64,000 bases of DNA from contig CAZFUL010000003.1 in the NCBI GenBank assembly GCA_964522435.1, positions 57,542 through 121,541 of the forward strand, read 5' to 3'. Numbering within the stretch: the stretch's first letter is position 1; every line of letters begins with the position of its first letter. The stretch is from an uncultured Gammaproteobacteria bacterium. GTDB lineage: Bacteria > Patescibacteriota > Patescibacteriia > Magasanikbacterales > UBA922. Below the pieces are notes generated by a model. It had not been told where the DNA came from. It ran no database searches and saw only the letters and a list, made by a program, of their open reading frames with translations. This document shows, piece after piece, positions 4,884-53,339 of this stretch. Made by a program: the position numbers and the translations under genes.

Positions 4884-7442
4884 ATGACTATTCGGAATCA
4901 ACTTGTATTTCTTTATGGCTGCATGACGGCCTGCTTTTTTTTGAGTAGTATTTTATGGTGGGTGAGTGTTGTTCGAGCACAAGATATTACGATAGATGTA
5001 ACGGTTCCCGCCATTTGTGGTAATGGCGTTCAAGAAGGAGCAGAAGAGTGTGATGAGGCTGATTTAAATGATCAAACTTGTGCTAATGAGGGATTCGCTG
5101 GTGGTGGCAATTTAGCCTGTCAGGTAGATTGTACCTTTGACACCAATGATTGTCGTGTTGGTGGTGGGGGTGGGGGCGGCGGAGGTGGTCCACAACTACC
5201 AGATCCTGAGCCGCAACCAGAACCCGAACCTCCGGTCCTACCTAATCCTGTATGTGGAGATGGTATAAAAGAAGGGGCAGAAGGTTGTGATGACGGAAAT
5301 CTTTTAGATACAGATTTTTGTAATTCCCAGTGCCAACCACGAGTCATTGTTTGTGGAAATGCATTAGTAGAAGTAGATGAACAATGTGACGATGGAAATG
5401 TGCAAAATGCAGATGGCTGTAGTAATCAATGTCGTGTTGAAGCACCGCTTGCTATTTGTGGTAATGGACAAATAGAGGCCGCAGAACAATGTGATGATGG
5501 GAATCTGCAAAATGCGGATGGCTGTAGTAATCAATGTACCATCGAGCTCCCGGCACCGATCTGTGGTAATCGTCAGATAGAACAAGGAGAACAATGTGAT
5601 GATGGAAATGCGCAAAACGCGGATGGGTGTAGTGATCAATGCCGGGTTGAAATTCCTGTTATTCCTCCTCAGGTGATTCCTCCTATCATTAACCCCCCAG
5701 TTGATCCTATTGCTGGTGGAGAAAATGGAGATGGCGGCGGGGGAGCGGATAGAGAACGAATAACTCTGGGACAAGTAGTATTTTGGATCGCAAATGGAGC
5801 TTTTGTGGTAACGCCCGATGAGCAACAACAGTTGCGAACAGTACAGGGGGATGCTCTTATTATTGGAATCCATGAGCATAATATTCCTCAAGCCGATGTT
5901 GCGCAAATTATCATTCGTGTGGGAGAAAAACAATTCGCGTTTACCTATTCTGCAACCGATGGTAGGTATTATGTCACTGTTCCTGTATCATCCGGTGTTG
6001 CCAATGCTACCGTAAGCATTACGTACAAAGAAGGAATGGAAGATCGTATCTCGTTTCGTATTCTTGGGGTACCGCTTGGCCGCATAATAGATGAAGAAAA
6101 AAATCCACTCTCTCAAGTGCGGGTTTCTCTTATCAATAATGAAACGCAACAGCTAGTAAATGTTGCCGTGGTTGGAGGGACAAATCCCTCTGTAACCGTT
6201 GCAGATGGGCAATATTATTTTCTTGTGCCTAATGGTCGCTATAGCTTGCGCATAGAAAAAGAAGGATTTCATATACGCAATACCCTCGCTTTTGTTGTGA
6301 ATGATCACATCATTAATCAAGAATATGTGTTAATAAAAAAACAGGAAACGATTTTAGAGGCTTTGGCAGGACTTGATGAGAATGCCCCTATTACTGAACG
6401 AGCAACCGTATTATCGCAAGCAATCGTAAATAATGTTCAAGAACAAAGCGCGTTAATTACTCAACAAATAACAGAACGTCTTGCCCTTGTTAATGACGTT
6501 GCGGATGATCCGCAAGTAGAAGAAACAGTAGAAATATTTGTAGCCCCGAGTGTTGTTGGGGTATCTGCGGCGATTATTGTTCCTTCCCTATGGTCGAGTA
6601 TTTTTCCCTTGTTGCGCTATATATTTTTACAACCACTTTTGTTATTGGGAAAACGTACCCGTCGAGAATGGGGTATTGTATACAACAGTTTAACAAAACT
6701 TCCTTTGGATTTGGCGGTTGTTCGTCTTATTGATGCCGCCACAGGTAAAGTAAAACAATCTCGCGTAACAGACACGCATGGACGATATTTATTTATTACT
6801 GAACCGGGGGAATATACGGTTGAAGTAGCAAAAGCAGGATTTACCTTTCCTTCTCAAATTATTCGTCATGTGCGCAATGATGGAAAATTTGTAGACGTAT
6901 ATCATGGAGAAACAATTCGGGTAGCATCTGATAATGTTACTATTACTCCCAATGTTCCACTTGATCCTGCCGGAGAAGTAAAAACACCCAAGAGAGTTGT
7001 TTGGGAGACACGATTGCGTATCCTGCAACAGACTATCTCGGTTTTTGGTATTCTCTTGGCGCTTATTTCTGTATATATTAGCCCAACGGTCTTTACGATT
7101 GGTTTTTTGATACTCCATATGGCGATGTATATTGGTTTCCGTGCATGGATTCAACCCAAACAGCCCAAAGGCTGGGGTATTGTATATAATGAAATCAATA
7201 AAGAACCAGTTTCTGGTGCGGTGGTACGACTCTTTACAAAAGAATATAATAAATTGGTCGCAACGCAAATAACGGATCGCAAAGGACGCTACGCGTTTTT
7301 AGTTGGTCCAAGTACGTATTATGTCACGTCACAAAAAACTGGATATGACAGAGTACAAACAGGAGAAATTGCTATCGACACCAACGAAGAACAATCGTTT
7401 TTAAAAGAAGATGTTCCTATGTCGCAGCATCCTAAGGAATAA
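4884..7442 (+). CDS. Large membrane/surface protein with five cysteine-rich repeats (CGNGxxExxExCDDGNxxNxDGCSxxC), Gly and Pro-Glu low-complexity linkers, three carboxypeptidase-regulatory-like domains and internal TM helices
   Basis: 852 aa; N-terminal TM; repeats at aa ~45-260 (Myxococcus-type cysteine-rich repeat, by memory); G11 run then PEPQPEPEPP; three GRY(x)F...G(x)Y beta-sandwich motifs each preceded by a hydrophobic helix. Confidence 0.7.
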   Translation: MTIRNQLVFLYGCMTACFFLSSILWWVSVVRAQDITIDVTVPAICGNGVQEGAEECDEADLNDQTCANEGFAGGGNLACQVDCTFDTNDCRVGGGGGGGGGGPQLPDPEPQPEPEPPVLPNPVCGDGIKEGAEGCDDGNLLDTDFCNSQCQPRVIVCGNALVEVDEQCDDGNVQNADGCSNQCRVEAPLAICGNGQIEAAEQCDDGNLQNADGCSNQCTIELPAPICGNRQIEQGEQCDDGNAQNADGCSDQCRVEIPVIPPQVIPPIINPPVDPIAGGENGDGGGGADRERITLGQVVFWIANGAFVVTPDEQQQLRTVQGDALIIGIHEHNIPQADVAQIIIRVGEKQFAFTYSATDGRYYVTVPVSSGVANATVSITYKEGMEDRISFRILGVPLGRIIDEEKNPLSQVRVSLINNETQQLVNVAVVGGTNPSVTVADGQYYFLVPNGRYSLRIEKEGFHIRNTLAFVVNDHIINQEYVLIKKQETILEALAGLDENAPITERATVLSQAIVNNVQEQSALITQQITERLALVNDVADDPQVEETVEIFVAPSVVGVSAAIIVPSLWSSIFPLLRYIFLQPLLLLGKRTRREWGIVYNSLTKLPLDLAVVRLIDAATGKVKQSRVTDTHGRYLFITEPGEYTVEVAKAGFTFPSQIIRHVRNDGKFVDVYHGETIRVASDNVTITPNVPLDPAGEVKTPKRVVWETRLRILQQTISVFGILLALISVYISPTVFTIGFLILHMAMYIGFRAWIQPKQPKGWGIVYNEINKEPVSGAVVRLFTKEYNKLVATQITDRKGRYAFLVGPSTYYVTSQKTGYDRVQTGEIAIDTNEEQSFLKEDVPMSQHPKE
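5352..5666 (+). repeat. Three tandem 105-bp direct repeats (each encoding one Cys-rich module) inside CDS 4884..7442; two degenerate copies upstream (~5010-5100, ~5252-5340)
   Basis: Repeat units start at 5352, 5457, 5562 (tgtggWaat...gatggNtgtagtaatcaatg), about 85-90% identity, in frame. Confidence 0.8.
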
Positions 7443-7463
7443 TAACTTTCAAGAACCACGAAC

Positions 7464-7490
7464 AGCCCCAAATAATTTGGGGTTGTTTTT
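7464..7490 (+). terminator. Rho-independent terminator after the Cys-rich repeat protein gene
   Basis: agCCCCAAATaatTTTGGGGttgttttt hairpin plus T-run 20 nt after stop. Confidence 0.7.
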
Positions 7491-7567
7491 ATATTTTCAT
7501 TTTTTTTCATTATTTTTTTGCTACTCTTCTAACAGAAAGAGTATTCATTTATGTTAAGGAGGAACAT

Positions 7568-10500
7568 ATGCGTTATCGTATTTTTATTGTGGGTATATTA
7601 GTACTTATTGGCGTGTTAGGCATTTTTTATAATAGTTATACACAAGGTTCTGCAATTATTATTTCCGAAATTGGCGCCAGCGAAGCAAGTGGACTTGAGT
7701 GGATAGAACTCTACAATAGGAGTAATGAGGCAATCGATGTGACTGATTGGATTTTTTTTGAAGCAGAGACAAATCATACCCTAACCCTGGTACAGGGAAC
7801 GAGCACGATTCAGGCGAAAGAATTTTTTGTTGTTGCACAAGATAGCACCCAGTTGCTTGAACGAGATGCATTATCCGGGATTACAGTATTTGATAGTGCC
7901 TGGGGGAGCTTAAACGAAAAAGGAGAATCTCTTGCAATAAAAGATCAAATCGGAAATATTGTTGAGCAATTTGTATATATCGCAAGTAGCAATTTTTCCT
8001 TAGAAAAAATAGATCTTGATGCATTTATCTATTCAGCAGAAAATTGGAAGGAACATCCCACTGGGCATTCTTTAGGAAAAGAAAATTATTGGAGTAGTGT
8101 ACCAACAGAAGATTTGCCGCCTGAAAACGAGGGAGAACCAGATGTTCAAGAACATGGGTTTATCCCTATTGTGATAAACGAAGTGGTATCAGATCCGGAG
8201 AGCGGTGGTGAATGGATAGAGTTACTGTCACTTGCTACGACAAGCGTGCAAGTAGCAAACTGGGAGATCTATGATAGTAGTGGAAAGATAGCTACCGTAT
8301 CAAGCACTCTTGAACCAGGATCTTTTTTTGTGGTGGAGCTTGCACGTTCTGTACTAAATAATACTGGTGACACGGTGATATTGCGGAATCATACTGGCAT
8401 AGAGGTGGAGCGTATCGTCTATGGGGTTGCGGATGGTGCCGTTGTTTCTGCGCCCCAAAAAGGCCAAAGTATTGCAAGAACGATGCCGGCTAGTGGCGAG
8501 TTTGTGATCACAACAACTATTACGAAAGGAGAAAAAAATAGTATCGTTTTTCCTGTACCTGAAGAAGGTTCTTCTCCACAAGAACCACCAGCTTCCCCGA
8601 GTAGCACACCAACCCCCACGGGTGTTATTGGTGATATTGTTATTAATGAATTGGTCTCTGATCCTGCTGATGACTCCGAAGAATTTATTGAATTATATAA
8701 TAGTACTCAGGCCACCGTGAGTATTGATGGCTGGTATATAGAAGATGGAAGTGAAGGTAAAACAGTATTGCAGGGGAATATTCCTGGGCAAGGATTTTTT
8801 GTCGTAGAAAAACCAAAAGGAAGTTTAAATAATGCCGGAGATTTAGTGCTGTTGTTTGATGCGTATCGAGATCAAATGGATAGTGTGGCGTATGGGAGTT
8901 GGGACGATGGAAATAAAGCAGATAATGCTCCGGTGGCAAAAGATCCACAATCCTTGTCGCGCAAATCCGATGGCAGTGACACGGATTATGACTATCATGA
9001 TTTTGTCATAACTGATGTGGTAACACCAGGAGAATCAAATCGTATTCATGAGAGCGGTATGCTTGGGCAAGGAATATATACAAAAGATCTTCGTATTTCA
9101 GAACTCTTTCCCAATCCCAAAGGAAGTGATACGGAACAGGAATTTATTGAACTGTTTAATTACGGAGAGATTCCTATTGCCTTACAAGGCTGGCAGATGG
9201 GGGATAACTCTAAAAAAATTTTTCGTTTTACAGACAACCACGAAATTCATCCCTTTTCATATCTCCTGTTGTATCGTTCTGAAACAGGCATTTCTTTGAA
9301 CAATTCTGGTACAGAAGAAGTACATGTATTTGCACCCAATGGAGAAATAATAGATTCGTTGCAATATAGCGGATCAGTAAAAGAGGAGAGTAGCTTTGCT
9401 CGATTTGGGGATACGAGAACTGACTGGACGACTCTTGCGACGCCAGGAAAAGAAAATGTGTTACAAGGACAAGCCGCGGCACCACAGATTGTTTTTCAAT
9501 CAATACCAGATGCCTTTGTCAATGAACCGATTTCTTTTGATGCGTCAGATACTATTGATGAGGATAGTGATAGCTTGTCTTTTTTTTGGGATCTGGGAGA
9601 CACGACAACCAGTAGTAACGAATCATTTATCCACCGCTATACCCAACCCGGAATATATACGATTCAATTAACGGTTCAAGACAGTGAAGCAAATAGTTCA
9701 ACGATGCAACGCATGATACGTATCAGTGATGTTATTGGGGCGACCGAACAGTTTGCTACGTCGTCGTATCATGCCCTGCGGATTACTGAGTTAGTCCCTA
9801 ATCCAGAAGGGACAGACGATACAGAGTTTATTGAATTATTTAATGCAGGATTTGTGGATATAGATATTTCAGATTTGTTTCTTGATGATGAAGATGGTGG
9901 TTCGAAGCCCTATCGCTTTCCTTCTGGTACGAGTATTGCGGCTCAATCATATCGGGTGTTTTCTCGTACTGAGACAAAATTAGCATTAAATAATACCGCA
10001 GACCATGTGCGTTTGTTGAGTAAAGAAAAAGATATATTATTAGATGTGGCATATGATGGAAGTGTGGAAGGGGCTGCATATGTCCTAGATGATGTCGGAA
10101 ATTGGGTATGGTCACAGCGTATTACTCCAGGAGAAATATCGTATGTTGAGGAATTGGATATCATATTATCTTCTACGAAAAAAAATAATAAAGAAAAAAT
10201 AGTTCTGTCCACCACGATTGCGGGGGCAAAACAACAAGATGTTGGAGATATGGTAGATGTGTATGGCGTTGTTGCCGTTGAACCAGGTGTCTTTGGGACG
10301 CAATATTTTTATATGGTTGATGAAGAACAACAAGCCATACAGGTGTATATGTATAAAAAAGATTTTCCCTCACTTTCTATTGGAGATGGCATGTATGTGC
10401 GAGGTGAATTGGCAATGACAAAAGGAGAGTGGAGAATAAAAACAAGTGACAAAGAAGATATTCGTGCACATGATCACCCGAATCTTGAGGATATTATGAC

Positions 10501-10948
10501 AGAAGACATTGCGCATATTAAAGAGGCGCAGATACAATTTGTTCGTATTGCTGGAGAGGTTACAGAAGCAAAGTCTTCGTATTTGTATGTGGATGATGGG
10601 ACGGATGAAATAAAAATATATCTAAAAAAAGGAGCAAACGTTCCTAAAAAGTTTGTCTCTGTGGGAGACCTTGTTGACGTTACGGGTATATTGATTACGA
10701 GTGGAGAAGAATTACAACTCTTACCCAGATCGTCAAAAGATATAATAAAAACCGGCGTTGTAGAAGAATCAATTATTGATAAAGGAATAGGAGATTCAGT
10801 GAACGAGGGAAGTGTTGCACAAACATATTTAACAGCAACTGCTGGAGGTATTAGTTCATTGCTACTCGGCATGTTAGCTAAAGTGCACGGCGCTACTATT
10901 TGGAGGAGAACAACGTACGTGCTAGAAAAAATTATTCGGCGTGCATAA
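7568..10948 (+). CDS. Giant membrane-anchored surface protein: N-terminal TM, five lamin-tail domains (LTD), one PKD domain, two C-terminal OB-fold-like domains, C-terminal hydrophobic segment
   Basis: 1126 aa; strong SD (aggagg) 8 nt upstream; LTD signatures IIISEIGASE...EWIELYN, IVINEVVSDPESGGEWIEL, IVINELVSDPADDSEEFIELYN, LRISELFPNPKGSDTEQEFIELFN, LRITELVPNPEGTDDTEFIELFN; PKD-like FFWDLGDTTTS...YTQPGIYTIQLTVQD; OB-like VDVYGVVAVEPG...QYFYMVDE and IAGEVTEAK...LYVDDGTDEIKIY; no nuclease catalytic motifs recognized. Confidence 0.75.
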   Translation: MRYRIFIVGILVLIGVLGIFYNSYTQGSAIIISEIGASEASGLEWIELYNRSNEAIDVTDWIFFEAETNHTLTLVQGTSTIQAKEFFVVAQDSTQLLERDALSGITVFDSAWGSLNEKGESLAIKDQIGNIVEQFVYIASSNFSLEKIDLDAFIYSAENWKEHPTGHSLGKENYWSSVPTEDLPPENEGEPDVQEHGFIPIVINEVVSDPESGGEWIELLSLATTSVQVANWEIYDSSGKIATVSSTLEPGSFFVVELARSVLNNTGDTVILRNHTGIEVERIVYGVADGAVVSAPQKGQSIARTMPASGEFVITTTITKGEKNSIVFPVPEEGSSPQEPPASPSSTPTPTGVIGDIVINELVSDPADDSEEFIELYNSTQATVSIDGWYIEDGSEGKTVLQGNIPGQGFFVVEKPKGSLNNAGDLVLLFDAYRDQMDSVAYGSWDDGNKADNAPVAKDPQSLSRKSDGSDTDYDYHDFVITDVVTPGESNRIHESGMLGQGIYTKDLRISELFPNPKGSDTEQEFIELFNYGEIPIALQGWQMGDNSKKIFRFTDNHEIHPFSYLLLYRSETGISLNNSGTEEVHVFAPNGEIIDSLQYSGSVKEESSFARFGDTRTDWTTLATPGKENVLQGQAAAPQIVFQSIPDAFVNEPISFDASDTIDEDSDSLSFFWDLGDTTTSSNESFIHRYTQPGIYTIQLTVQDSEANSSTMQRMIRISDVIGATEQFATSSYHALRITELVPNPEGTDDTEFIELFNAGFVDIDISDLFLDDEDGGSKPYRFPSGTSIAAQSYRVFSRTETKLALNNTADHVRLLSKEKDILLDVAYDGSVEGAAYVLDDVGNWVWSQRITPGEISYVEELDIILSSTKKNNKEKIVLSTTIAGAKQQDVGDMVDVYGVVAVEPGVFGTQYFYMVDEEQQAIQVYMYKKDFPSLSIGDGMYVRGELAMTKGEWRIKTSDKEDIRAHDHPNLEDIMTEDIAHIKEAQIQFVRIAGEVTEAKSSYLYVDDGTDEIKIYLKKGANVPKKFVSVGDLVDVTGILITSGEELQLLPRSSKDIIKTGVVEESIIDKGIGDSVNEGSVAQTYLTATAGGISSLLLGMLAKVHGATIWRRTTYVLEKIIRRA

Positions 10949-12707: not shown

Positions 12708-12722
12708 AAAATAGATAATAAA

Positions 12723-12748
12723 AAGCCCCGATTATATCGGGGCTTTTT
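12723..12748. terminator. Bidirectional rho-independent terminator (variant of the recurrent GC hairpin) between the antiporter gene and the tRNA-Pro end of the minus-strand tRNA operon
   Basis: aaaGCCCCGATtatATCGGGGCttttt, A-run and T-run on either side. Confidence 0.75.
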
Positions 12749-12749
12749 G

Positions 12750-12824
12750 TCGGAGTGATAGGACTCGAACCTACGACCTCATGGTCCCAAACCACGCGCT
12801 CTAGCCAACTGAGCTACACTCCGC
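12750..12824 (-). tRNA. tRNA-Pro (anticodon UGG)
   Basis: Reverse complement folds as cloverleaf: acceptor CGGAGUG/CACUCCG, anticodon stem CGUGG/CCAUG, loop UUUGGGA (UGG), T-loop GGTTCGAGTCC; CCA not encoded. Confidence 0.8.
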
Positions 12825-12912
12825 CTATGCCTTCGCTACGCTCAGGCTTCGGCGGACATGTCCGCTATTTATAATGAAGCTTCGCGTATAAGAAATTTTC
12901 TTAGCAAAGGAG

Positions 12913-12984
12913 TGCCGAGGGGCAGGATCGAACTGCCGACACGAGGATTTTCAGTCCTCTGCTCTACCACTGAGCTACCTCGGC
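12913..12984 (-). tRNA. tRNA-Phe (anticodon GAA)
   Basis: Reverse complement GCCGAGGTAGCTCAGTGGTAGAGCAGAGGACTGAAAATCCTCGTGTCGGCAGTTCGATCCTGCCCCTCGGCA; anticodon loop CUGAAAA; 7-bp acceptor stem. Confidence 0.85.
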
Positions 12985-13071
12985 CTTATAAAACAAGTAA
13001 CAGGTAACTTGTAACAGCTAACGTCTCGTCGGAGCTTGTTAATTGTTAAAAATTACCTGTTACTTGTTATT

Positions 13072-13147
13072 TGGTGGACCAGAGAGGATTCGAACCCCCT
13101 ACCTCCTCGGTGCAAACGAGGCGCTCTACCAAGTGAGCTACTGGCCC
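13072..13147 (-). tRNA. tRNA-Ala (anticodon UGC), CCA encoded
   Basis: Reverse complement GGGCCAGTAGCTCACTTGGTAGAGCGCCTCGTTTGCACCGAGGAGGTAGGGGGTTCGAATCCTCTCTGGTCCACCA; G3:U70 identity pair, anticodon loop UUUGCAC. Confidence 0.85.
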
Positions 13148-13199: not shown

Positions 13200-13276
13200 T
13201 AGAATATACACAGTTGAGAGTTTTATCAATACCCTCTATGATAGAGGGGGTATTGTATATATTATTTTTATGATCT

Positions 13277-14926
13277 ATGAAAGCTGCTGATTTATTAGTA
13301 AAAGCCTTGGAACATGAAGGAGTAAGTTTTATTGTGGGTGTTCCTGGAGAAGAAAATTTGGATGTTGTTGAGTCACTCCGACAATCACGCATCACCCTTA
13401 TCCCTACGCGTCATGAACAGAGTGCGGGATTTATTGCCGCAACCGTAGGAAGGTTAACAGGAAAACCCGGGGTTGCTCTTTCTACCCTTGGGCCGGGCGC
13501 AACTAATTTTGCAACAGCCGCTGCCTATGCAACGTTGGGGGGGATGCCCCTACTTATGATTACCGGACAAAAACCAATTCATTCAAGTAAGCAAGGACAT
13601 TTTCAAATTCTTGATATTGTACAAATGATGCAGCCCTTATGTAAGTCTACGAAACAAATAACGAATGCAAATATGCTTGCTGCTACGGTGCGAGAGTCAT
13701 TTCGTATTGCTACAGAAGAGCGTCCCGGCGCCGTACATATTGAGTTGCCTGAAGACATTGCTGCGGAAGATACCTCCCTGACGACATTATTTCCTATCAC
13801 AAAAATTCGTCGTCCTATTGCCGAACAGAAAGCCATTCAACAAGCTGTAGAGAGTATCCGTGCTGCGAAACATCCCCTGTTGTTGATTGGTGCTGGAGCA
13901 AATAGAAAATTAACCTCAACCATGCTTCTTGAATTTATTGAACAAACACAGATTCCATTTTTTAATACGCAAATGGGGAAAGGGGTTGTTGATGAACGTC
14001 ATCCCTGTTTCATCGGGACTGCCGCTTTGAGTAGTAATGATCTCATCCATAAAGCGGTTGAACATGCCGATGTTATTATCAATATTGGGCATGATGTGGT
14101 AGAAAAACCGCCGTTTATCATGAACAGAGAACAACAGGTTATTCATATAAATTTTTATGGTGCAAAAGTTGATAACATTTATTTTCCCCAAGTAGAAGTA
14201 ATTGGCGATATTGCAAACGCAATTTGGCAAATCAAAGAAGGTTTGCGAGCTCAGCAATCTGAACAGACTTGGGATACCTCTTTTTTCTTTCAAATAAAAC
14301 AGGCAATTGATACACATATCGCTCGAGATACGCAGAACCCAGCGTTTCCTCTTATTCCCCAGCGCATTGTTGCTGATGTACGAAAAATAATGCCAGAAGA
14401 TGGTATTGTTGCGCTCGATAATGGTATGTATAAACTTTGGTTTGCACGTAATTATCGTACGTATGCGTCTAATACGTTGTTATTAGATAACGCGCTTGCA
14501 ACTATGGGGGCAGGATTGCCAAGTGCTATGGCAGCAAAAATGATATATCCGGATAAAGCCGTCCTTGCCGTGTGTGGTGATGGAGGCTTTATGATGAATT
14601 CTCAAGAAATAGAAACCGCGTTACGGTTGCAACTGCATTTGGTTATTTTAATTTTAGATGATGGAGGGTATGGCATGATTAAATGGAAGCAGGAGCTTGG
14701 TGGTTTTATTAATTATGGGTTAGATTTTCATAATCCAGATTTTGTACGCTATGCAGAAAGTTATGGTGCGTATGGCTATAGAGTGACGCATGCTGATGAA
14801 TTGTGCACCCTTATGACTAAGGCATTTGCTATTCCTGGTGTTCACATTATTGATGTTCCGATTGATTATCGACCGAATATAGATGTGTTATCCACAGAAC
14901 TTATGGAGTTAACAAAACAGGTATGA
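13277..14926 (+). CDS. Thiamine-pyrophosphate enzyme of the acetolactate synthase/2-oxoacid decarboxylase family (possible 2-oxoglutarate decarboxylase)
   Basis: 549 aa; N-terminal Pyr domain (GVPGEENLDVVESL...HEQSAGF), C-terminal TPP-binding GDGGFMMN motif; no small regulatory subunit adjacent; coupled to an aldehyde dehydrogenase. Confidence 0.75.
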   Translation: MKAADLLVKALEHEGVSFIVGVPGEENLDVVESLRQSRITLIPTRHEQSAGFIAATVGRLTGKPGVALSTLGPGATNFATAAAYATLGGMPLLMITGQKPIHSSKQGHFQILDIVQMMQPLCKSTKQITNANMLAATVRESFRIATEERPGAVHIELPEDIAAEDTSLTTLFPITKIRRPIAEQKAIQQAVESIRAAKHPLLLIGAGANRKLTSTMLLEFIEQTQIPFFNTQMGKGVVDERHPCFIGTAALSSNDLIHKAVEHADVIINIGHDVVEKPPFIMNREQQVIHINFYGAKVDNIYFPQVEVIGDIANAIWQIKEGLRAQQSEQTWDTSFFFQIKQAIDTHIARDTQNPAFPLIPQRIVADVRKIMPEDGIVALDNGMYKLWFARNYRTYASNTLLLDNALATMGAGLPSAMAAKMIYPDKAVLAVCGDGGFMMNSQEIETALRLQLHLVILILDDGGYGMIKWKQELGGFINYGLDFHNPDFVRYAESYGAYGYRVTHADELCTLMTKAFAIPGVHIIDVPIDYRPNIDVLSTELMELTKQV

Positions 14927-16290
14927 CCACAGAACAAATAAATCCTGCGACAGGAGAAGCTATCGATAGTTATTCATATATGGATTTTTCTGTTGTTGAA
15001 ACTATGTTGCACAACATGCAAGTAGCCCAACATGTTTGGAAAGAACAATCCTTTCAATACAAAGCAGTCTGCTTTCGGTCACTTGCAACATTGTTACGAG
15101 CAGAAAAAGAATCTTGTGCCCGCATGATTACTCGCGAGATGGGAAAAGCAATAACAGAATCTTTTGCCGAAGTGGAAAAGTGTGCAACGTTGGCTGAGTA
15201 TCTTGCAGAACATGCGGAATCTTGGTTAAAACCGAGAACATTGCATGCTGATGGAAAAAAACATGAGTTGCACTTTGACCCCTTGGGGATCATTTGTTTA
15301 GTGATGCCATGGAACTTTCCATTTTGGCAGCCCCTAAAGGTTGGTTTACCGCCACTTTTAGCAGGGAATGCCATCGTGTTAAAACACGCAAAAAATGTTA
15401 GTGGCAGTAGTCTCTTATTAGAGAGGCTTATGGTACAGGCCGGATTTCCTAAAGATATATTTCGTAGTATTATTGTTGATCATTCTGTGTTAGCGCAAGT
15501 AATAGCACACCCAGCGATTGCGGCGGGTTCATTAACAGGAAGTGAAAAAGCTGGTTCTATCTTTGCGGCTCAAGCTGGAAAACAGCTCAAAAAAGTCGTA
15601 ATGGAATTGGGTGGCTCTGATGTGGCGATTGTTTGTAAGGATGCGGACATTCCTTTAGCTGCAAAAGGAATAGCAAAAGGGAGAATGATGAATGCTGGAC
15701 AGGTCTGTATTGCAACAAAACGTATTCTTGTTCATCAATCAATTGAAGTTCAATTTCTACAAGCGCTTGTGCAAGAAGTACGTGCACTGCGCGTAGGTGA
15801 TCCAGAACAAGATGCTATTGATATGGGGCCATTGGTGAATGAACAAGCGGTTAAGGATATGGAATCATTTGTAGAAGACGCATTAAATCAAGGAGCGCAT
15901 TGTGTGTTAGGCGGAAAGCGAATTAACCAATCCGGAGCATATTTTGAACCAACAATTCTTACAAACGTAACACCAAACATGCGAGTGATGCGTGAAGAAG
16001 TATTTGGACCAATTGCTCCTGTCATGGCTTTTACAAATGAGGAAGAAGCAATCACTGTTGCCAATAACAGTACCTATGGATTATCTGCAACTGTGTGGAC
16101 TCGGGATATGCAACAAGGAGAACGGATAGCAAAAGCACTTCAAACAGGATCTGTATTTATTAACTCCTTATCAAAAACTGACCCACGACTTCCTGTGGGT
16201 GGCATAAAGAATAGCGGTTTTGGTCGCGAGTTATCCGAATATGGTATTCGAGAGTTTGTGAACATAAAAACAATAAATGTTTACTCATAG
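14923..16290 (+). CDS. NAD(P)-dependent succinate-semialdehyde dehydrogenase-like aldehyde dehydrogenase (Sad/YneI-type short ALDH)
   Basis: 455 aa; INPATGE...MITREMGKAITESFAEVEKCA...EHAESWLKP closely parallels the E. coli Sad/YneI N-terminus (from memory); catalytic ELGG and GQVCIA Cys motifs; start overlaps upstream stop (ATGA). Confidence 0.75.
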   Translation: MTTEQINPATGEAIDSYSYMDFSVVETMLHNMQVAQHVWKEQSFQYKAVCFRSLATLLRAEKESCARMITREMGKAITESFAEVEKCATLAEYLAEHAESWLKPRTLHADGKKHELHFDPLGIICLVMPWNFPFWQPLKVGLPPLLAGNAIVLKHAKNVSGSSLLLERLMVQAGFPKDIFRSIIVDHSVLAQVIAHPAIAAGSLTGSEKAGSIFAAQAGKQLKKVVMELGGSDVAIVCKDADIPLAAKGIAKGRMMNAGQVCIATKRILVHQSIEVQFLQALVQEVRALRVGDPEQDAIDMGPLVNEQAVKDMESFVEDALNQGAHCVLGGKRINQSGAYFEPTILTNVTPNMRVMREEVFGPIAPVMAFTNEEEAITVANNSTYGLSATVWTRDMQQGERIAKALQTGSVFINSLSKTDPRLPVGGIKNSGFGRELSEYGIREFVNIKTINVYS

Positions 16291-16302
16291 TGGTATAATA
16301 AA

Positions 16303-16334
16303 AAACCAGCGTAACGTCCACGCTGGTTTTTTAT
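16303..16334. terminator. Bidirectional rho-independent terminator between aldehyde dehydrogenase gene (+) and small membrane protein gene (-)
   Basis: aaaaaACCAGCGTaacgtccACGCTGGTtttttatt. Confidence 0.75.
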
Positions 16335-16546
16335 TATACGAGTCGATCAATCGTATAATGGGTAATGGTAATAATGGCAATTCCTAGTAGGAGTGAAAAA
16401 AGATAACTCATGGGAAGATTCCCTGGAAGCAGATACATATCTAAAAATCCCCAAATACCCCGCCATAAACCAATTAAACCAGAAAGAATAATTAAGTTAA
16501 AAACTAATTGATGATGTTTTTTAAGTTTAAATAATTTTTTTAGCAT
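16334..16546 (-). CDS. Small hypothetical membrane protein (two predicted TM helices)
   Basis: 70 aa; LVFNLIILSGLIGLWRGIWGF and YLFSLLLGIAIITITHY hydrophobic segments; terminator immediately downstream. Confidence 0.4.
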   Translation of the reverse strand: MLKKLFKLKKHHQLVFNLIILSGLIGLWRGIWGFLDMYLLPGNLPMSYLFSLLLGIAIITITHYTIDRLV

Positions 16547-17095: not shown

Positions 17096-17167
17096 GCGGA
17101 TGTCGTATAATGGTTATTATCTCGGCCTTCCAAGCCGATGACGCCGGTTCGATTCCGGTCATCCGCT
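17096..17167 (+). tRNA. tRNA-Gly (anticodon UCC)
   Basis: GCGGATGTCGTATAATGGTTATTATCTCGGCCTTCCAAGCCGATGACGCCGGTTCGATTCCGGTCATCCGCT; anticodon loop CUUCCAA, U73 discriminator. Confidence 0.85.
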
Positions 17168-17256
17168 CTCGGTAGCAATAAACATTTAGCTATTGACAAT
17201 TGACGTGTTTTCAAAGATAGTGAGTTGGTAGTAGCTAAATGTTTATTGTTAGTTAT

Positions 17257-17329
17257 AGCGAGATAGAGCAATTGGCAGCTCGTCGGGCCCATAACCCGAA
17301 GGTTCCAGGTTCGAGTCCTGGTCTCGCAA
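17257..17329 (+). tRNA. Initiator tRNA-fMet (anticodon CAU) with C at position 33
   Basis: AGCGAGATAGAGCAATTGGCAGCTCGTCGGGCCCATAACCCGAAGGTTCCAGGTTCGAGTCCTGGTCTCGCAA; near-identical to the E. coli tRNA-fMet anticodon arm (TCGGGCTCATAACCCGA) including three consecutive G-C pairs; A1xA72 mismatch typical of bacterial initiators; loop is CCCATAA rather than CUCAUAA. Confidence 0.75.
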
Positions 17330-17340
17330 CAAAAGCCTAT

Positions 17341-17414
17341 GCGGTAATAGCTCAGCTGGCTAGAGCGCCTCCTTGCCAAGGAGGAGGTCGCCGGTTCGAA
17401 TCCGGTTTACCGCT
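17341..17414 (+). tRNA. tRNA-Gly (anticodon GCC)
   Basis: GCGGTAATAGCTCAGCTGGCTAGAGCGCCTCCTTGCCAAGGAGGAGGTCGCCGGTTCGAATCCGGTTTACCGCT; anticodon loop UUGCCAA. Confidence 0.85.
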
Positions 17415-17427
17415 CACATGGATAGAA

Positions 17428-17487: not shown

Positions 17488-17943
17488 TTAACATTCTTCC
17501 CATCGACTGTCGTTTGCTGTCTCTCGAGCAAGACGAGGAGTACGACAGTTTGCGCACACAATAGAACAGTCTACCCAACTGTCTGTGTGGATATTCGGGT
17601 TTTCCGTGGCAAACGTTATGGTAGCAACAAGTGCGTTGCTTTTGCCACACCCTGAACACAATTTTTTCGCGTACGCGCGATATTTTTTATACCATGGCAC
17701 GTAGCCTTCTCCTTTTTCTCTTGTTTGCGCAAGTATGCAGGGATATACACTGTTTGTCAACAAGAGAAGGTATTCCTGTACACTGTCTCTGTGTGTGAAG
17801 ATCAAGCCTTGATTGTGTAAGAGCGTGTATGCTAAAGTGACTTCATTATGCACCATATCGACCATATCCGTCTTCATAAAACATCCCTCGACATGCGTTG
17901 GGCAATACTTCGATGTATGCGAGAATGGTTTTGGCAACAACAC
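17488..17943 (-). CDS. Hypothetical cysteine-rich protein with C-terminal CxxC...CxxC zinc-ribbon-like motif; start probably internal (~17877)
   Basis: 151 aa in ORF track; CSGCGKSN...CSIVCANC; 5' end overlaps divergent epmA, so an internal Met start is more likely. No family recognized. Confidence 0.35.
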   Translation of the reverse strand: MLLPKPFSHTSKYCPTHVEGCFMKTDMVDMVHNEVTLAYTLLHNQGLIFTHRDSVQEYLLLLTNSVYPCILAQTREKGEGYVPWYKKYRAYAKKLCSGCGKSNALVATITFATENPNIHTDSWVDCSIVCANCRTPRLARETANDSRWEEC

Positions 17944-18879
17944 TTTATTGAAGTAGAGACACCAATTATATTAGGTTTGCCTGGTCAAGAACCCTACCTA
18001 TCTCCCATGGAACTCACGGTGCATAATGAGCAGGGGAGAGCTTTTTCTGCGTATTTACACACCTCACCAGAATATACATTAAAAAAAATGTTGGCAGCAG
18101 GATATACCAACATTTTTTCGCTTACAAAAACATTTCGTGACTATGAATCATTTGGTGGAACACACAATCCAGAATTTACGATGATTGAGTGGTATCGGAC
18201 AAATGCAACTATTGTTGATCTCATGAATGATGTTGAACAGTTGATGAGACAAGTGTGTAGTTATATAGGACAACACTATCCTGAACAGCAAGAACGATTA
18301 GAATTTATCAATCTGCCACAGGGTATACGGCGAGTGTCTATGAAAGAATTGTGGCAAGAAACAATACAAATAAATTTAGATGAGTATCTAACAACAGAAT
18401 CGTTATATACCCTTTCTATTTCTAAAGGGTACCATCCGCAAAAAGAAGAACGATATGAAGATGTCTTTTATCGCATATTTTTAAACGAAATTGAACCCAG
18501 ATTATCATCTATGGGGGTAGTCATGCTGCATCATTATCCAGCACAAATGGCAGCTTTGTCTCGTTTATCTCCAGATGATTCCCGGTATGCAGAACGAGTA
18601 GAGGTGTATATCGATGGGATAGAATTAGCAAATGGGTTTAGTGAATTAACTCATGCGCAGGAACAACGAGATCGTCTTGTAAGAGAACAACAACACAGAA
18701 AAGAGCTAGGAAAAACGGTATACCCAATTGACGAGGAATTTATTGCCGCCGTTCAACAATTGCCTTCTTGCGCGGGGATTGCCTTGGGAGTTGATCGTTT
18801 AGTGCAGCTCGTAACTGGTTGCAAAAATATTAATGACGTGTTAGTGTTACCCATGTCTCGCATGGTGGATTCTGTATAA
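17848..18879 (+). CDS. epmA: Elongation factor P--(R)-beta-lysine ligase (EpmA/PoxA, class II LysRS paralog)
   Basis: 343 aa; FWQQHFIEVETPII, FRDYESFGGTHNPEFTMIEWY, class II aaRS motifs, no anticodon-binding domain; immediately upstream of efp whose target loop carries Lys. Start may be at the Met of MRWAIL (17893). Confidence 0.75.
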   Translation: MHHIDHIRLHKTSLDMRWAILRCMREWFWQQHFIEVETPIILGLPGQEPYLSPMELTVHNEQGRAFSAYLHTSPEYTLKKMLAAGYTNIFSLTKTFRDYESFGGTHNPEFTMIEWYRTNATIVDLMNDVEQLMRQVCSYIGQHYPEQQERLEFINLPQGIRRVSMKELWQETIQINLDEYLTTESLYTLSISKGYHPQKEERYEDVFYRIFLNEIEPRLSSMGVVMLHHYPAQMAALSRLSPDDSRYAERVEVYIDGIELANGFSELTHAQEQRDRLVREQQHRKELGKTVYPIDEEFIAAVQQLPSCAGIALGVDRLVQLVTGCKNINDVLVLPMSRMVDSV

Positions 18880-18902
18880 ATCATGCATATTTATTTTTAT
18901 TA

Positions 18903-19478
18903 TTGTATTTTATGGCAGATACGAGTGCAATTAAAAAAGGTGCTGTTATTCAACATCAAGGTGACTTGTATGTGGTAACGGTGTTCCAATTTGTAAATCC
19001 AGGTAAAGGCGCGGCGTTTACCAAAACAAAAATGAAAAGTATTTCTACAGGTAAGACAATTGAAATTACCTATAAAAGTAGTGAATCGGTAGATGTGGTA
19101 CAGGTACAACGTCAAAATATGCAATTTTTGTATAAAACAGGCAGTACCTTTTCTTTCATGAATAAAGATACCTATGAAACAATTGACGTTTCAGAAGATA
19201 TTTTAGGTGATGATGGAGCGTATTTAAAAGAAGGGTTAGAAGTTATTGCGGTATTATATAACGATGCGGTAGTGGCAATTGACTTACCAAAAAAGATACA
19301 ATACACGGTTAAAAGTGCGCCACCTGCAGTGAAAGGTGATAGTGCAAGTGGTAATGTTACCAAAGAAATTGAATTAGAAAATGGATTAAAAGTGCAAGCG
19401 CCTATTTTTATTAAAGAAGGCGAAGAAATTTTAGTGAATACCGAAACAGGAGAATACGGTGGGCGAGTAACTGAATAA
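18903..19478 (+). CDS. efp: Translation elongation factor P (lysine-type loop PGKGAA)
   Basis: 191 aa; KKGAVIQHQGDLYVVTVFQFVNPGKGAAFTKTKMKS; three-domain length; adjacent epmA. Confidence 0.85.
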   Translation: MYFMADTSAIKKGAVIQHQGDLYVVTVFQFVNPGKGAAFTKTKMKSISTGKTIEITYKSSESVDVVQVQRQNMQFLYKTGSTFSFMNKDTYETIDVSEDILGDDGAYLKEGLEVIAVLYNDAVVAIDLPKKIQYTVKSAPPAVKGDSASGNVTKEIELENGLKVQAPIFIKEGEEILVNTETGEYGGRVTE

Positions 19479-19492
19479 TATTAATATAAAAA

Positions 19493-19521
19493 ACACCCCG
19501 ATTGAATCGGGGTGTTTTTTA
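19493..19521. terminator. Bidirectional terminator (recurrent CCCCGATTGAATCGGGG hairpin) between efp (+) and tkt (-)
   Basis: aaaACACCCCGATTGAATCGGGGTGTttttttat. Confidence 0.8.
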
Positions 19522-19543
19522 TATCCTACTACCGTAAAACATA

Positions 19544-21454
19544 CTATGTGCGCATGATCTGTTTTACTGTGTTTGTAATTCCCACTGCATCAATCCCCGC
19601 CGCCATATAGAGATCCTCCGCGGTTCCAGATAACTGATATGCATCTACGCCCAGCATGCTGAAAGACTCTACCCTAATTGAGCGAAGCTGTAATTCTCGG
19701 GCGAGCATTGCGCCTATCCCAGAGTGCGTCGTGTGATCTTCTACGGTAATGACCCGCTTTGTTTTTTGGATAGAATCAAATAGGGTTGCATCAAATGTTT
19801 TCGGTGAACTGGCAATGATAATTTCTGCAGAGATATGTTTTTCTTTGAGGGCAGTTTGTGCACGCAGTGCCTCAATAACGATTGGCCCACTTGCCACAAT
19901 GGTGATATCTGTTCCTGTTCGTAACAGGTCACATTTCCCATAGGTATACACATAGGTGTTATCAAAAAACACCTCGCCATTTTCTTTGGTTAATACAGGA
20001 ATTTTATGTCTGCCCATGCGAACATAATAGTTTCCATAATGAGAAGCAACATAGCGAATAATTCGGTCACAATGGTTCGGATCAGCGGGCTCAATGATTC
20101 CGGTATTCAATAATCCTAAAAATGAGCCCATATCATCAATGGCTTGGTGCGTTGGTCCGTCTTCTCCTACAGACAGACCACAGTGGGTTGCCACCATTTT
20201 GACATTTGTTTGGTTGATATCATTCACCCGCGCTTGGTCTTTTGCACGACTCGTCATAAATACACCAAAAGTAGAACAAAAAGGAATTATTCCAGATAAA
20301 CTTAATCCTCCTGCACAAGAAAGCATTTGCTGTTCTGCTACGCCACAATCAATATGTTGGTTGGGCAGGGCTTCTTTTACCTGTTGTGTTTTTACTGATT
20401 CAGCAAGGTCAGCCGTAAGGGCAATAATTTGTTTATTTTTTTGAGCAATATCCAAAAGAGCATTACCATATGCGCTACGGCAATCAGTGAGTGTTTCTTT
20501 TTCATATAGGCGAGGTGTTTCTATTGAAAGAGTTATTTTTTCCCCGATTGGAGAAACTGTTGGTGTTTTTGGTTTCCATTGGATATTTTTTCTCCAAGAT
20601 GTAATCAGATTTTTTTCCTTATCTGTTATTGCATTTTGTGTGAGCCAAGAAGTTGCAAGTTCTTTTGGAGGTGCTTTTCCATGCCAGGTCGCTTTTCGTT
20701 TTTTTCCTTGCTCTTCCATAAACGAAACACCTTTTCCCATAATAGTATGGCCAAGTAACAGTGTTGGACGACGTGTTTCTTTATAAGCAGCCTGTAAGCC
20801 ATGCCACATGTCTTGCATATCATGACCGTTTACTTCAATAACCTGCCACCCTGCAGCAGTCCACTGTTTTTTGGGATTAATCGGCATGATCTGTTTTATT
20901 CCATCAGAGAGTTGTACTTGATTATAATCCATGAAGACAATTAAATTGTGTAATTTATATTTATGAGCAAAGTTCATCATTTCATAGACTTGTCCTTCTT
21001 GAGACTCGCCATCACCAACAAGGGCGAATACTTTTTTTGGTTCTTTCTGTGACTTATATGTTTCTGCTAAGGCAAAGCCAGTGGCTGCAGAAACGCCAAC
21101 ACCAAGCGGACCGGTTCCATACCATACTCCCTTCACATGACGGGTCACATGGCCTTCATAAGGAAAACCAAATTGACGAAATCCGTCACGTAATTTTTTT
21201 CCTGATATATAGCCCGCTTCTGCAAGAATAGCATATGCGGCAGGAGAAATGTGTCCATTTGAAATAACAATTTTTTCACCGCTGACAGAAATAATTTGTG
21301 TATATAAGAGTGCTAGGTAATCAATACAACTCAAAGATCCTCCTGGATGACCGCTTTGTGATTGCACGAGCATATCAATAATTCGCTGTCTGCAAGAACG
21401 GGCGACAAGCTCACTAAGCTGCTGTTGTTTTTTTGATAATGGGGGAAGTGTCAT
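19544..21454 (-). CDS. tkt: Transketolase
   Basis: 636 aa; GHPGGSLS, TPP-binding GDGESQEG, transketolase pyrimidine-binding and C-terminal domains. Confidence 0.85.
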   Translation of the reverse strand: MTLPPLSKKQQQLSELVARSCRQRIIDMLVQSQSGHPGGSLSCIDYLALLYTQIISVSGEKIVISNGHISPAAYAILAEAGYISGKKLRDGFRQFGFPYEGHVTRHVKGVWYGTGPLGVGVSAATGFALAETYKSQKEPKKVFALVGDGESQEGQVYEMMNFAHKYKLHNLIVFMDYNQVQLSDGIKQIMPINPKKQWTAAGWQVIEVNGHDMQDMWHGLQAAYKETRRPTLLLGHTIMGKGVSFMEEQGKKRKATWHGKAPPKELATSWLTQNAITDKEKNLITSWRKNIQWKPKTPTVSPIGEKITLSIETPRLYEKETLTDCRSAYGNALLDIAQKNKQIIALTADLAESVKTQQVKEALPNQHIDCGVAEQQMLSCAGGLSLSGIIPFCSTFGVFMTSRAKDQARVNDINQTNVKMVATHCGLSVGEDGPTHQAIDDMGSFLGLLNTGIIEPADPNHCDRIIRYVASHYGNYYVRMGRHKIPVLTKENGEVFFDNTYVYTYGKCDLLRTGTDITIVASGPIVIEALRAQTALKEKHISAEIIIASSPKTFDATLFDSIQKTKRVITVEDHTTHSGIGAMLARELQLRSIRVESFSMLGVDAYQLSGTAEDLYMAAGIDAVGITNTVKQIMRT

Positions 21455-52412: not shown

Positions 52413-53339
52413 TTATTTTTTGAGAATCACCGTACAAGAACTTGGGCTGCTATCTTCGTCAAATCCTGCAGGGCAGCTATTGTTGAGGTCGTTACTCGGG
52501 TTACACATAAGAGTCCCATCTGCACGATAGAGGGTACTAAAACAGTTGGGACAGTTTTCTATTTGAAGATAATAGGTATTTCCTGCAACGCGACAACGTG
52601 CCACTGAGGCTGATTGTACAGAAGGGTTGTCTTTTAAAAGAGAAAATGGAACGGCTACCCAATCTGGAATACCTTGTTCTGTATAAATGGGTTCTGGCGC
52701 ACTGTAATCTGGAACCGTCGGAGGAGGAGTATTAGAATTATTTTGGGATTCATTATTTGACTGTTGTTGTGAGGATCCTGTTTGAGATCCTGGTCGGCTG
52801 GGTTCTGGAACAATAGGAGGATTTGTTGGTTCTTGGCCAATAGAGCAGGTGCCTATATGTGCTACGGTTACCTGTTGTTGAGCCGCAATACATTCGTTAC
52901 TATAGGTTCTTCCGTTTGTCCCACAGATGGGGTTTGCAATGGGTTCACAAAAACGTGGAGCGTCATACACATCTTCTGCATTCGCACTGGTTGTTGGTGT
53001 ACTCAGCGCTAAAGCCGTATCAATGCCGCAGTCGCCAGATAAAAAGGCAAGGGCGTCACAACGACGTGCATCGGTTAAGACGCAATCAAACACATAGCCT
53101 TGGTCGGTCGTAATAATATCAAAGCTATTTCCATTATAGACACACCAGGCATAGGCTTGTTGCTCTTGTGTACTTGGCACGACGGTTTCATTATTGGTTA
53201 CGGGGGGTTGTTCTGTTTCTTCTTGAACACGAGAACAGCCAGCACCAAGAATAACCAAGATGCTGAGTGAAAGGAGAATACGCAAAAGAGGAATACGCAT
53301 AACACTATGACAAAACCATGTTACTGGGCGAATGAGCAA
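52413..53339 (-). CDS. Lipoprotein with Kazal-type serine protease inhibitor domain and additional Cys-rich modules
   Basis: 308 aa; lipobox LVILGAGC; CEPIANPICGTNGRTYSNECIAAQQQVTVAHIGTC matches the Kazal spacing (C-x6-C-x7-C-x6-Y-x3-C-x..-C) with the PxCG.nG.TY.N.C core; Ser/Gln/Asn/Pro-rich linker. Confidence 0.65.
   Translation of the reverse strand: MLIRPVTWFCHSVMRIPLLRILLSLSILVILGAGCSRVQEETEQPPVTNNETVVPSTQEQQAYAWCVYNGNSFDIITTDQGYVFDCVLTDARRCDALAFLSGDCGIDTALALSTPTTSANAEDVYDAPRFCEPIANPICGTNGRTYSNECIAAQQQVTVAHIGTCSIGQEPTNPPIVPEPSRPGSQTGSSQQQSNNESQNNSNTPPPTVPDYSAPEPIYTEQGIPDWVAVPFSLLKDNPSVQSASVARCRVAGNTYYLQIENCPNCFSTLYRADGTLMCNPSNDLNNSCPAGFDEDSSPSSCTVILKK

Follow-up and report, generated by a model that had tools for sequence, protein, structure and literature searches.

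Overlapping genes for a ThDP-dependent enzyme and an aldehyde dehydrogenase form a probable 2-oxoglutarate-to-succinate gene pair in a probable Patescibacteria contig

The stretch of DNA analyzed here, 64,000 nucleotides of contig CAZFUL010000003.1 (hereafter the window), carries a thiamine diphosphate (ThDP)-dependent enzyme of the acetolactate synthase family followed directly by an aldehyde dehydrogenase (ALDH). We propose that this gene pair probably converts 2-oxoglutarate (2-OG) to succinic semialdehyde and then to succinate. In this scheme the ThDP enzyme would carry out a non-oxidative decarboxylation of 2-OG to succinic semialdehyde and CO2, and the ALDH would oxidize succinic semialdehyde to succinate, producing NAD(P)H. 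The domains and cofactor motifs, the families and clades to which the two proteins belong, the conservation of their adjacency and the limits of the operon are read directly from the sequences analyzed, whereas we infer the 2-OG substrate, the cofactor of the ALDH and the physiological role. The initial annotation of this region had described a 549-residue ThDP enzyme with a GDGGF motif that overlaps a short ALDH by 4 nt, and both open reading frames (ORFs) and the overlap were found as claimed:

13277-14926, + strand: ThDP-dependent enzyme, 549 aa, ATG start (ORF list, Pfam, NCBIfam); proposed 2-OG decarboxylase of 'clade B', the sister clade of OgdA
14923-16290, + strand: ALDH, 455 aa, ATG start; divergent succinic semialdehyde dehydrogenase (SSADH) of the Sad/YneI/SsaD type
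14923-14926, + strand: ATGA stop/start overlap of the ThDP gene and the ALDH gene, read from the sequence

The ATGA overlap suggests translational coupling of the ThDP enzyme and the ALDH, which would keep both enzymes made together such that the reactive aldehyde does not build up.

All three Pfam domains of ThDP enzymes (PF02776, PF00205 and PF02775) were found in the 549-residue protein, and its GDGGF motif lies at residues 434-438. The sole NCBIfam model that it passes is NF006187/PRK08322 (843.7 bits, cut-off 509), a curated equivalog with the product name 'acetolactate synthase large subunit'. The protein misses both AlsS models (NF006378, 455 versus 510; TIGR02418, 411 versus 551) and the biosynthetic acetolactate synthase model TIGR00118 (349 versus a cut-off of 538). 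Taken literally, the product name of NF006187 and the label of the closest solved structure (PDB 13bb, 478 bits, a 558-aa 'acetolactate synthase') would both make this gene a true acetolactate synthase, either catabolic, in an acetoin pathway, or anabolic, with an ALDH that is functionally unrelated to it. However, NF006187 also captures a decarboxylase. As references for the cyanobacterial enzyme OgdA we used genes, located through the PDB sequence of the Synechococcus 7002 SSADH, that adjoin the SSADH genes of Synechococcus sp. NIES-970 (L082, ORF 6411-8048) and Halothece PCC 7418 (L083, ORF 6448-8085), which are homologues of SynPCC7002_A2770 (OgdA), biochemically characterized as a 2-OG decarboxylase (PMC5160925, PMC10418658). 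Since these two homologues score 866 and 863 bits on NF006187, the family that names the window gene includes a proven 2-OG decarboxylase, and the name of the model conflicts with the published activity.

To place the enzyme among its relatives, we built a bootstrapped neighbor-joining (NJ) tree rooted with E. coli IlvI, to which the window enzyme is 27% identical; AlsS is matched at ∼300 bits by phmmer. Clade B was represented in our comparisons by 84 loci, made up of the best 80 (L001-L080) of at least 595 relatives detected in a scan of GTDB species genomes, the three nearest relatives (L085-L087) and the window itself. In this tree AlsS branches off first, followed by OgdA and then by PDB 13bb, which is sister to clade B and lies outside it. 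The node that separates all these other enzymes from AlsS has a support of 94, the union of 13bb with clade B has 99 and clade B itself has 100. The window enzyme therefore groups with OgdA and 13bb at a bootstrap of 94, apart from both the anabolic acetohydroxyacid synthases and AlsS, and within that group it falls in clade B, sister to the characterized OgdA/KGD clade rather than nested inside it. The absence of an adjacent regulatory subunit, also claimed at first reading, was borne out, with minus-strand tRNA genes upstream and the ALDH downstream of the ThDP gene and no IlvH-like small subunit detected in the 64-kb window by tblastn with E. coli IlvH (best E = 1.6). A small subunit of the IlvH/IlvN type could be encoded elsewhere in the genome.

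We then compared the active site with those of enzymes for which substrate contacts have been described. The catalytic residues E47, G434-D435-G436 and D462 align with E50, D435 and D462 of the Microcystis KGD (MaKGD), and M410, K386, W470 and K471 are also kept. In B. subtilis AlsS, Gln424 and Gln487 place the second pyruvate for carboligation (PMC9469723), and in our alignment OgdA and clade B alike have Ala408 and Lys471 at these two positions. This replacement of the AlsS acceptor site counts against an acetolactate synthase, as do the sub-threshold scores on both AlsS models and on the biosynthetic model, the lack of an IlvH/IlvN-like subunit in 64 kb, the inclusion of OgdA in NF006187, the neighboring genes (an ALDH and tRNA genes instead of ilvC/ilvD or an acetolactate decarboxylase) and an ALDH adjacency that is kept in 56 of the 84 loci. 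Although AlsS (B. subtilis 4rjj, K. pneumoniae 1ozf) has the same three-domain ThDP fold and likewise works without a regulatory subunit, the window enzyme differs from it in its model scores, in both glutamines and in being coupled to an ALDH instead of an acetolactate decarboxylase. We consider an acetolactate synthase highly improbable, and the window enzyme is predicted to be neither of the AlsS type nor anabolic.

The pocket also carries two lysines that it shares with OgdA. Docking of 2-OG into an AlphaFold model of MaKGD gave contacts with Gln254, Lys386 and Lys471 (PMC10418658). All 84 clade-B sequences carry Lys386, and 83 of the 84 carry Lys471; OgdA has both lysines, whereas AlsS and IlvI have neither. 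Lys386 is also absent from 13bb, which has Met at this position, Leu at Y465 and Met at W470. When the docking-derived contact positions Q254, K386, K471, V382, A408 and L467 of MaKGD are read across to the window enzyme, K386, K471 and A408 are kept, while Q254 is replaced by S, V382 by N and L467 by M. Within clade B, S252, N382 and Y385 are near-invariant. Because the clade-B pocket is essentially constant whatever gene lies downstream, the alignment argues for a single substrate across the clade.

The second protein of the pair was analyzed in the same way. It matches the Pfam Aldedh domain (PF00171) with 458 bits, and the motifs INPATGE, MITREMGK and AEVEKCA, which had been quoted in the initial annotation as signs of a Sad/YneI-like enzyme, are all present. 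Its best solved structures are E. coli Sad (PDB 8qmq, 383 bits), the Synechococcus 7002 SSADH (SySSADH, 370 bits) and Salmonella YneI (3efv, 370 bits), with alignments that are gapless over ∼447 residues, and the top seven PDB matches are all Sad, YneI or SySSADH. Sad and YneI are NAD(P)+-dependent SSADHs of the same short ALDH type (∼455-462 aa) as the window protein, which is 41% identical to E. coli Sad and 40-41% identical to cyanobacterial SsaD. When the window ALDH was placed in an NJ tree alongside GabD, AldA, PatD and BetB of E. coli and ALDH21-type enzymes, it fell inside the Sad/SsaD clade of SSADHs with 100% bootstrap, in accordance with the initial assignment. The catalytic N131, E228 and C262 are intact, corresponding to the oxyanion Asn, the general-base Glu and the catalytic Cys (PMC7510979). 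In the 3VZ3 structure the carboxylate of succinic semialdehyde is surrounded by Trp135, Arg139 and Ser419 (SySSADH numbering; PMC7510979), of which W135 is kept unchanged. From its sequence, we describe the window ALDH as a divergent representative of the Sad/YneI/SsaD clade of SSADHs, and K154 together with K157 makes its predicted cofactor preference lean towards NADP+. Compared with E. coli Sad, which is not paired with a decarboxylase, it has K139, T419 and K157 in place of R, S and P.

Both active sites bear on whether the pair could instead act like a pyruvate decarboxylase route, taking pyruvate through acetaldehyde to acetate with a gain of NAD(P)H in a fermentative host. The family descends from pyruvate-using enzymes resembling acetolactate synthase, and the host looks fermentative and small in genome, with a D-lactate dehydrogenase-like gene, an archaeal-type bifunctional phosphoglucose/phosphomannose isomerase (PGI/PMI) and a transketolase in the window. 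However, the ALDH of the SSADH clade keeps a basic residue and a hydroxyl at the carboxylate site, which are needless for acetaldehyde, the two pocket lysines of the decarboxylase suggest a dicarboxylic substrate, and cyanobacterial KGDs do not decarboxylate pyruvate (PMC10418658). For these reasons we regard a pyruvate route as very unlikely.

The genes that accompany clade B elsewhere provide a further line of evidence. Proteins that share 57-74% identity with the window ThDP enzyme are very numerous and come from many phyla, and each of the 120 top-ranking clusters of the protein search was at least 64% identical to it. Among the best 80 of the at least 595 relatives in GTDB species genomes are proteobacterial members (Burkholderia, Paraburkholderia, Pseudomonas, Paraglaciecola, Alteromonas, Methylococcaceae, Methylophagaceae and Nitrosomonas) together with others from Planctomycetota, Bacteroidota, Myxococcota, KSB1, Patescibacteria (Magasanikbacteria, Uhrbacteria and Paceibacteria) and a Woesearchaeota archaeon. 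Clade B is thereby confirmed in at least 80 GTDB species, in which it is uniformly annotated 'acetolactate synthase large subunit'. The only conserved neighbor in these first 80 loci is a same-strand ALDH immediately downstream; neighborhood clustering of the 80 loci, in which the simple ORF caller gave spurious antisense ORFs where GC content was high, recovered no third conserved gene. Across all 84 loci an ALDH lies directly downstream in 56, and the position after the clade-B gene was distributed as follows:

10 of 84 loci: downstream ALDH best matching the cyanobacterial SsaD reference
46 of 84 loci: downstream ALDH of a second type (ALDH21)
23 of 84 loci: no ALDH downstream
5 of 84 loci: contig ends before the partner position is visible

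Eight of the ten SsaD-best partners are clearly of the Sad/SsaD type (41-54% identity to SsaD), namely those of the window, of L085-L087, of the Patescibacteria loci L002, L023 and L045 and of the KSB1 locus L004; the partners in L036 and L068 (31-36%) are not clearly so. The three nearest relatives of the ThDP enzyme (L085-L087, 69-74% identity) each have the SsaD-type ALDH directly downstream. Identity to cyanobacterial SsaD is 50-54% for the ALDHs of L085, L087, L002 and L023, and 50-55% once that of L004 is counted. Arg139 and Ser419 are kept by those of L085, L087, L023 and L004, with T419 in L002.

The second partner type belongs to the ALDH21 family, a different ALDH family that is absent from the window and 27-31% identical to the window ALDH. 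It is the usual clade-B partner in Proteobacteria, Planctomycetota, Bacteroidota and other phyla. A Paraglaciecola example matches PDB 5j6b, 5kf0 and 5jry, labelled only 'aldehyde dehydrogenase' and presumably Burkholderia structural-genomics entries, with 720-750 bits, and matches moss PpALDH21 (PDB 5mz5) with 583 bits at ∼54% identity. PpALDH21 is a characterized NADP+-dependent SSADH, catalyzing the same reaction as proposed for the window ALDH (PMC7823795), and it binds the carboxylate of succinic semialdehyde through Arg121, Tyr296 and Arg457 (bioRxiv 10.64898/2026.01.13.699213). This triad is kept in 38 of the 39 ALDH21-type partners that align over all three positions, including a subgroup at ∼35% identity. 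Since two SSADH families partner one decarboxylase clade with a near-invariant pocket, the simplest reading would be that succinic semialdehyde is the shared intermediate and that clade B decarboxylates 2-OG. The basal members of clade B and the outgroup OgdA are both paired with an SsaD-type ALDH. We give roughly even odds to the broader proposal that clade B is a second, non-cyanobacterial family of 2-OG decarboxylases, all of them tied to an SSADH that comes from one or the other of two families.

Individual clade-B loci show how these arrangements are distributed. The ALDH21-type partner, ∼54% identical to moss ALDH21, follows the clade-B gene in Burkholderia, Paraglaciecola, Alteromonas, Planctomycetota, Xanthomonadales and further groups (for example L025:6001-9082 and L012:6001-9110). 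A groundwater contig of a Woesearchaeota (DPANN) archaeon encodes a 63%-identical clade-B enzyme (L007:228-1937) that has no adjacent ALDH and groups with the Uhrbacteria one, which suggests gene exchange among ultra-small lineages.

Several observations weigh against 2-OG as the substrate of the window pair and against succinate as its product. The ThDP enzyme is just 42% identical to the OgdA homologues, and three of the docked contact positions are changed with respect to OgdA (Q254S, V382N and H385Y). The MaKGD contacts themselves derive from docking into a model, not from a crystal structure (PMC10418658). In the ALDH, two of the three residues around the carboxylate carry conservative changes (R139K and S419T), of which K139 is shared with L086 and T419 with L002. 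Among the SsaD-type partners the window ALDH has diverged furthest, with 58% identity to its nearest relative, that of L086, and 40-46% to all the others, and it falls below every NCBIfam SSADH cut-off (NF006915, 469 versus 730; NF010575, 424 versus 855; TIGR01780, 352 versus 646), though a cyanobacterial SsaD homologue likewise misses its best one (678 versus 730). Sad-type enzymes are also promiscuous (PMC11480449). At the level of the clade, the 23 loci without a downstream ALDH fit the proposal poorly, and the literature on methanotrophs, on the Pseudomonas 'KGDC' and on the Candidate Phyla Radiation (CPR) yielded no usable report of a characterized clade-B member. Finally, no tricarboxylic acid (TCA) cycle genes were found among the genes of the 64-kb window. 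We had considered the P. fluorescens 'KGDC' work as evidence on clade B and set it aside as uninformative, since its quantitative PCR primers target a gene listed as alkB.

Two alternatives draw on these same observations. If the substrate were another acidic 2-oxo acid, the pair could convert oxaloacetate through malonate semialdehyde to malonate, or 2-oxoadipate through glutarate semialdehyde to glutarate. The distance from OgdA and the residues S252, N382 and Y385, which are unlike those of OgdA, are compatible with such a shift, K139 and T419 in the ALDH (K139 also in L086) could alter chain-length preference, and the promiscuity of Sad points the same way (PMC11480449). What makes this alternative unlikely in our view is that the characterized members of both partner ALDH families are SSADHs and both families retain their binding residues for a C4 omega-carboxylate, that K386 and K471 are common to clade B and OgdA, and that the most basal clade-B members share the SsaD-type partner with OgdA. 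The second alternative is a 2-OG-dependent carboligase, MenD- or HOAS-like, that would pass the succinyl-semialdehyde-ThDP intermediate on to an acceptor, leaving the ALDH to scavenge leaked aldehyde. Enzymes of the acetolactate synthase family are often carboligases, and the loci without an ALDH would be in keeping with such a role. In contrast, the 80 loci show no third conserved gene that might provide or consume a ligation product, and the tight two-gene operon with its own terminator also speaks against a carboligase. We therefore hold a carboligase to be highly unlikely, and retain decarboxylation of 2-OG followed by oxidation to succinate as the probable function of the pair.

The closest characterized counterpart of the pair is the cyanobacterial OgdA/SsaD bypass, known from SynPCC7002_A2770/A2771, sll1981 and the Microcystis MaKGD (Zhang & Bryant 2011 as described in PMC5160925 and PMC10418658). 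In both systems a ThDP enzyme of the acetolactate synthase family adjoins a Sad/SsaD-type ALDH, both components are homologous and the ALDHs fall in one clade. The two decarboxylases pass NF006187 and have in common E47(50), M410, D435, D462, Y465, W470, K386 and K471. They differ in that the window proteins are only 42% (decarboxylase) and 40-41% (ALDH) identical to the cyanobacterial ones, that the window decarboxylase lies in the sister clade and carries Q254S, V382N and H385Y, and that the window ALDH carries R139K and S419T. The gene order is also reversed: in the window the decarboxylase comes first with a 4-nt overlap, whereas in cyanobacteria ssaD precedes ogdA with a gap of 45-82 nt. 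Moreover, the window host does not photosynthesize and probably has no TCA cycle. The initial annotation had seen in this gene pair the architecture of the cyanobacterial 2-OG decarboxylase/SSADH bypass, which holds in so far as a homologous adjacent pair is present, but not for the gene order, and the ThDP enzyme is no orthologue of OgdA.

Next, we examined the boundaries of the transcription unit. The following features surround the pair:

13214-13242, + strand: promoter-like site TTGAGA-17-TATGAT, 35 nt before the ThDP start codon (consensus scan, 10/12 matches)
16293-16339, + strand: intrinsic terminator hairpin with a 20-bp stem between A and T runs, 3 nt past the ALDH stop
12749-13147, - strand: tRNA cluster Pro, Phe, Ala, upstream of the ThDP gene
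17096-17415, + strand: tRNA cluster Gly, Met, Gly, downstream of the ALDH gene

The terminator folds with -27.8 kcal/mol (z = -6.75), and none of 200 shuffled sequences folds as well. Because its stem is flanked by A and T runs, it is probably bidirectional. Promoter-like sites are at least as common in shuffled sequence as here, so that the match at 13214-13242 is weak evidence for a promoter, and the intergenic region 5′ of the ThDP gene must also house the divergent promoter of the minus-strand tRNA cluster. With a promoter-like site on one side and a strong terminator on the other, the two genes appear to make up a complete bicistronic operon. Between the promoter-like site and the ThDP start, at 13227-13255, is a perfect 11-bp inverted repeat, CAATACCCTCT...AGAGGGGGTATTG. 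Its fold is thermodynamically ordinary (z = -1.6), and it may serve as an operator or form a small hairpin in the leader. The 5′ region of the ThDP gene gave no match to an Rfam riboswitch or leader. Further upstream, a GC-rich hairpin with A and T runs at 12720-12748, between the end of a KefC-like gene at 12707 and the minus-strand tRNA-Pro, is probably a bidirectional terminator.

The flanking tRNA genes raised the question of a recent horizontal acquisition of the pair, which we rejected. The GC content and the GC content at third codon positions of the two genes equal those of housekeeping genes, and the operon is therefore native to this lineage and no recent insertion. Recent acquisition is also countered by the transketolase/EpmA neighborhood, which shows synteny to L002, a contig of Candidatus Magasanikbacteria with genes for the ThDP enzyme, the ALDH, a transaldolase-like protein, a transketolase (63% identity) and EpmA (56% identity). 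A KefC-like antiporter upstream is common to the window and L087 (50% identity). Among named homologues, the best matches to the ThDP enzyme come from Patescibacteria, and the window proteins form singleton clusters at 90% identity. The synteny with L002, the antiporter in common with L087 and these homologues make the host probably a member of the Patescibacteria with a relationship to Magasanikbacteria.

Apart from the pair, the window encodes the housekeeping proteins RuvB, NrdAB, ThrRS, GatB, MiaA, MiaB, ThyA, Tmk, DHFR, GyrB, NusG, L1, L25, S6 and FtsW, a PilB-like ATPase and many genes without a family match. EpmA (the EF-P lysine aminoacylase), EF-P and the transketolase lie just downstream of the operon at 17848-21454; EpmA is unexpected in a CPR-like genome. 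Other genes of the window that were annotated individually are:

4884-7442: 852-aa protein with several cysteine-rich acidic repeats (TIGR02232, 'myxo_disulf_rpt')
7568-10948: protein of 1126 aa, unmatched in NCBIfam; a short segment of it resembles the LTD-containing protein upstream in L087
52413-53339 and 51272-52402, - strand: Kazal-type protease-inhibitor domain protein beside a PGA_cap (capsule synthesis) protein
53305-54504, - strand: D-lactate/D-2-hydroxyacid dehydrogenase-like protein, 399 aa, with an N-terminal extension of ∼100 residues
63139-63975, - strand: archaeal-type bifunctional PGI/PMI, towards the window edge

A PGA_cap protein with 62% identity to this one is encoded close to the ThDP/ALDH pair of L085. 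The D-lactate dehydrogenase-like protein may contribute to redox balance during fermentation, and a part in the metabolism of 2-oxo acids is conceivable.

This setting bears on what the pair would do for its host. CPR bacteria are thought to lack a TCA cycle. A role as a bypass within that cycle is unlikely in a Patescibacteria host, and a stand-alone step from 2-OG to succinate is more likely. The shunt originally suggested for these genes is supported, by inference. In such a host the pair would more plausibly oxidize or dispose of 2-OG, for example 2-OG derived from glutamate by deamination or transamination, turning it into succinate with a gain of NAD(P)H.

If the proposed function is true, the database name of the gene is wrong, as are those of many relatives annotated through NF006187, and metabolic reconstructions based on these names are distorted, crediting organisms with a false branched-chain amino-acid or acetoin synthesis and missing a link between 2-OG and succinate. 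Clade B may thus be an unrecognized, widespread family of 2-OG decarboxylases misnamed acetolactate synthase, in which case the succinic-semialdehyde route of cyanobacterial style would be far more widespread than appreciated. For CPR bacteria the pair would represent a stand-alone step that yields NAD(P)H, and for Patescibacteria, whose energy and redox metabolism is poorly understood, it would provide a testable piece of central-carbon metabolism.

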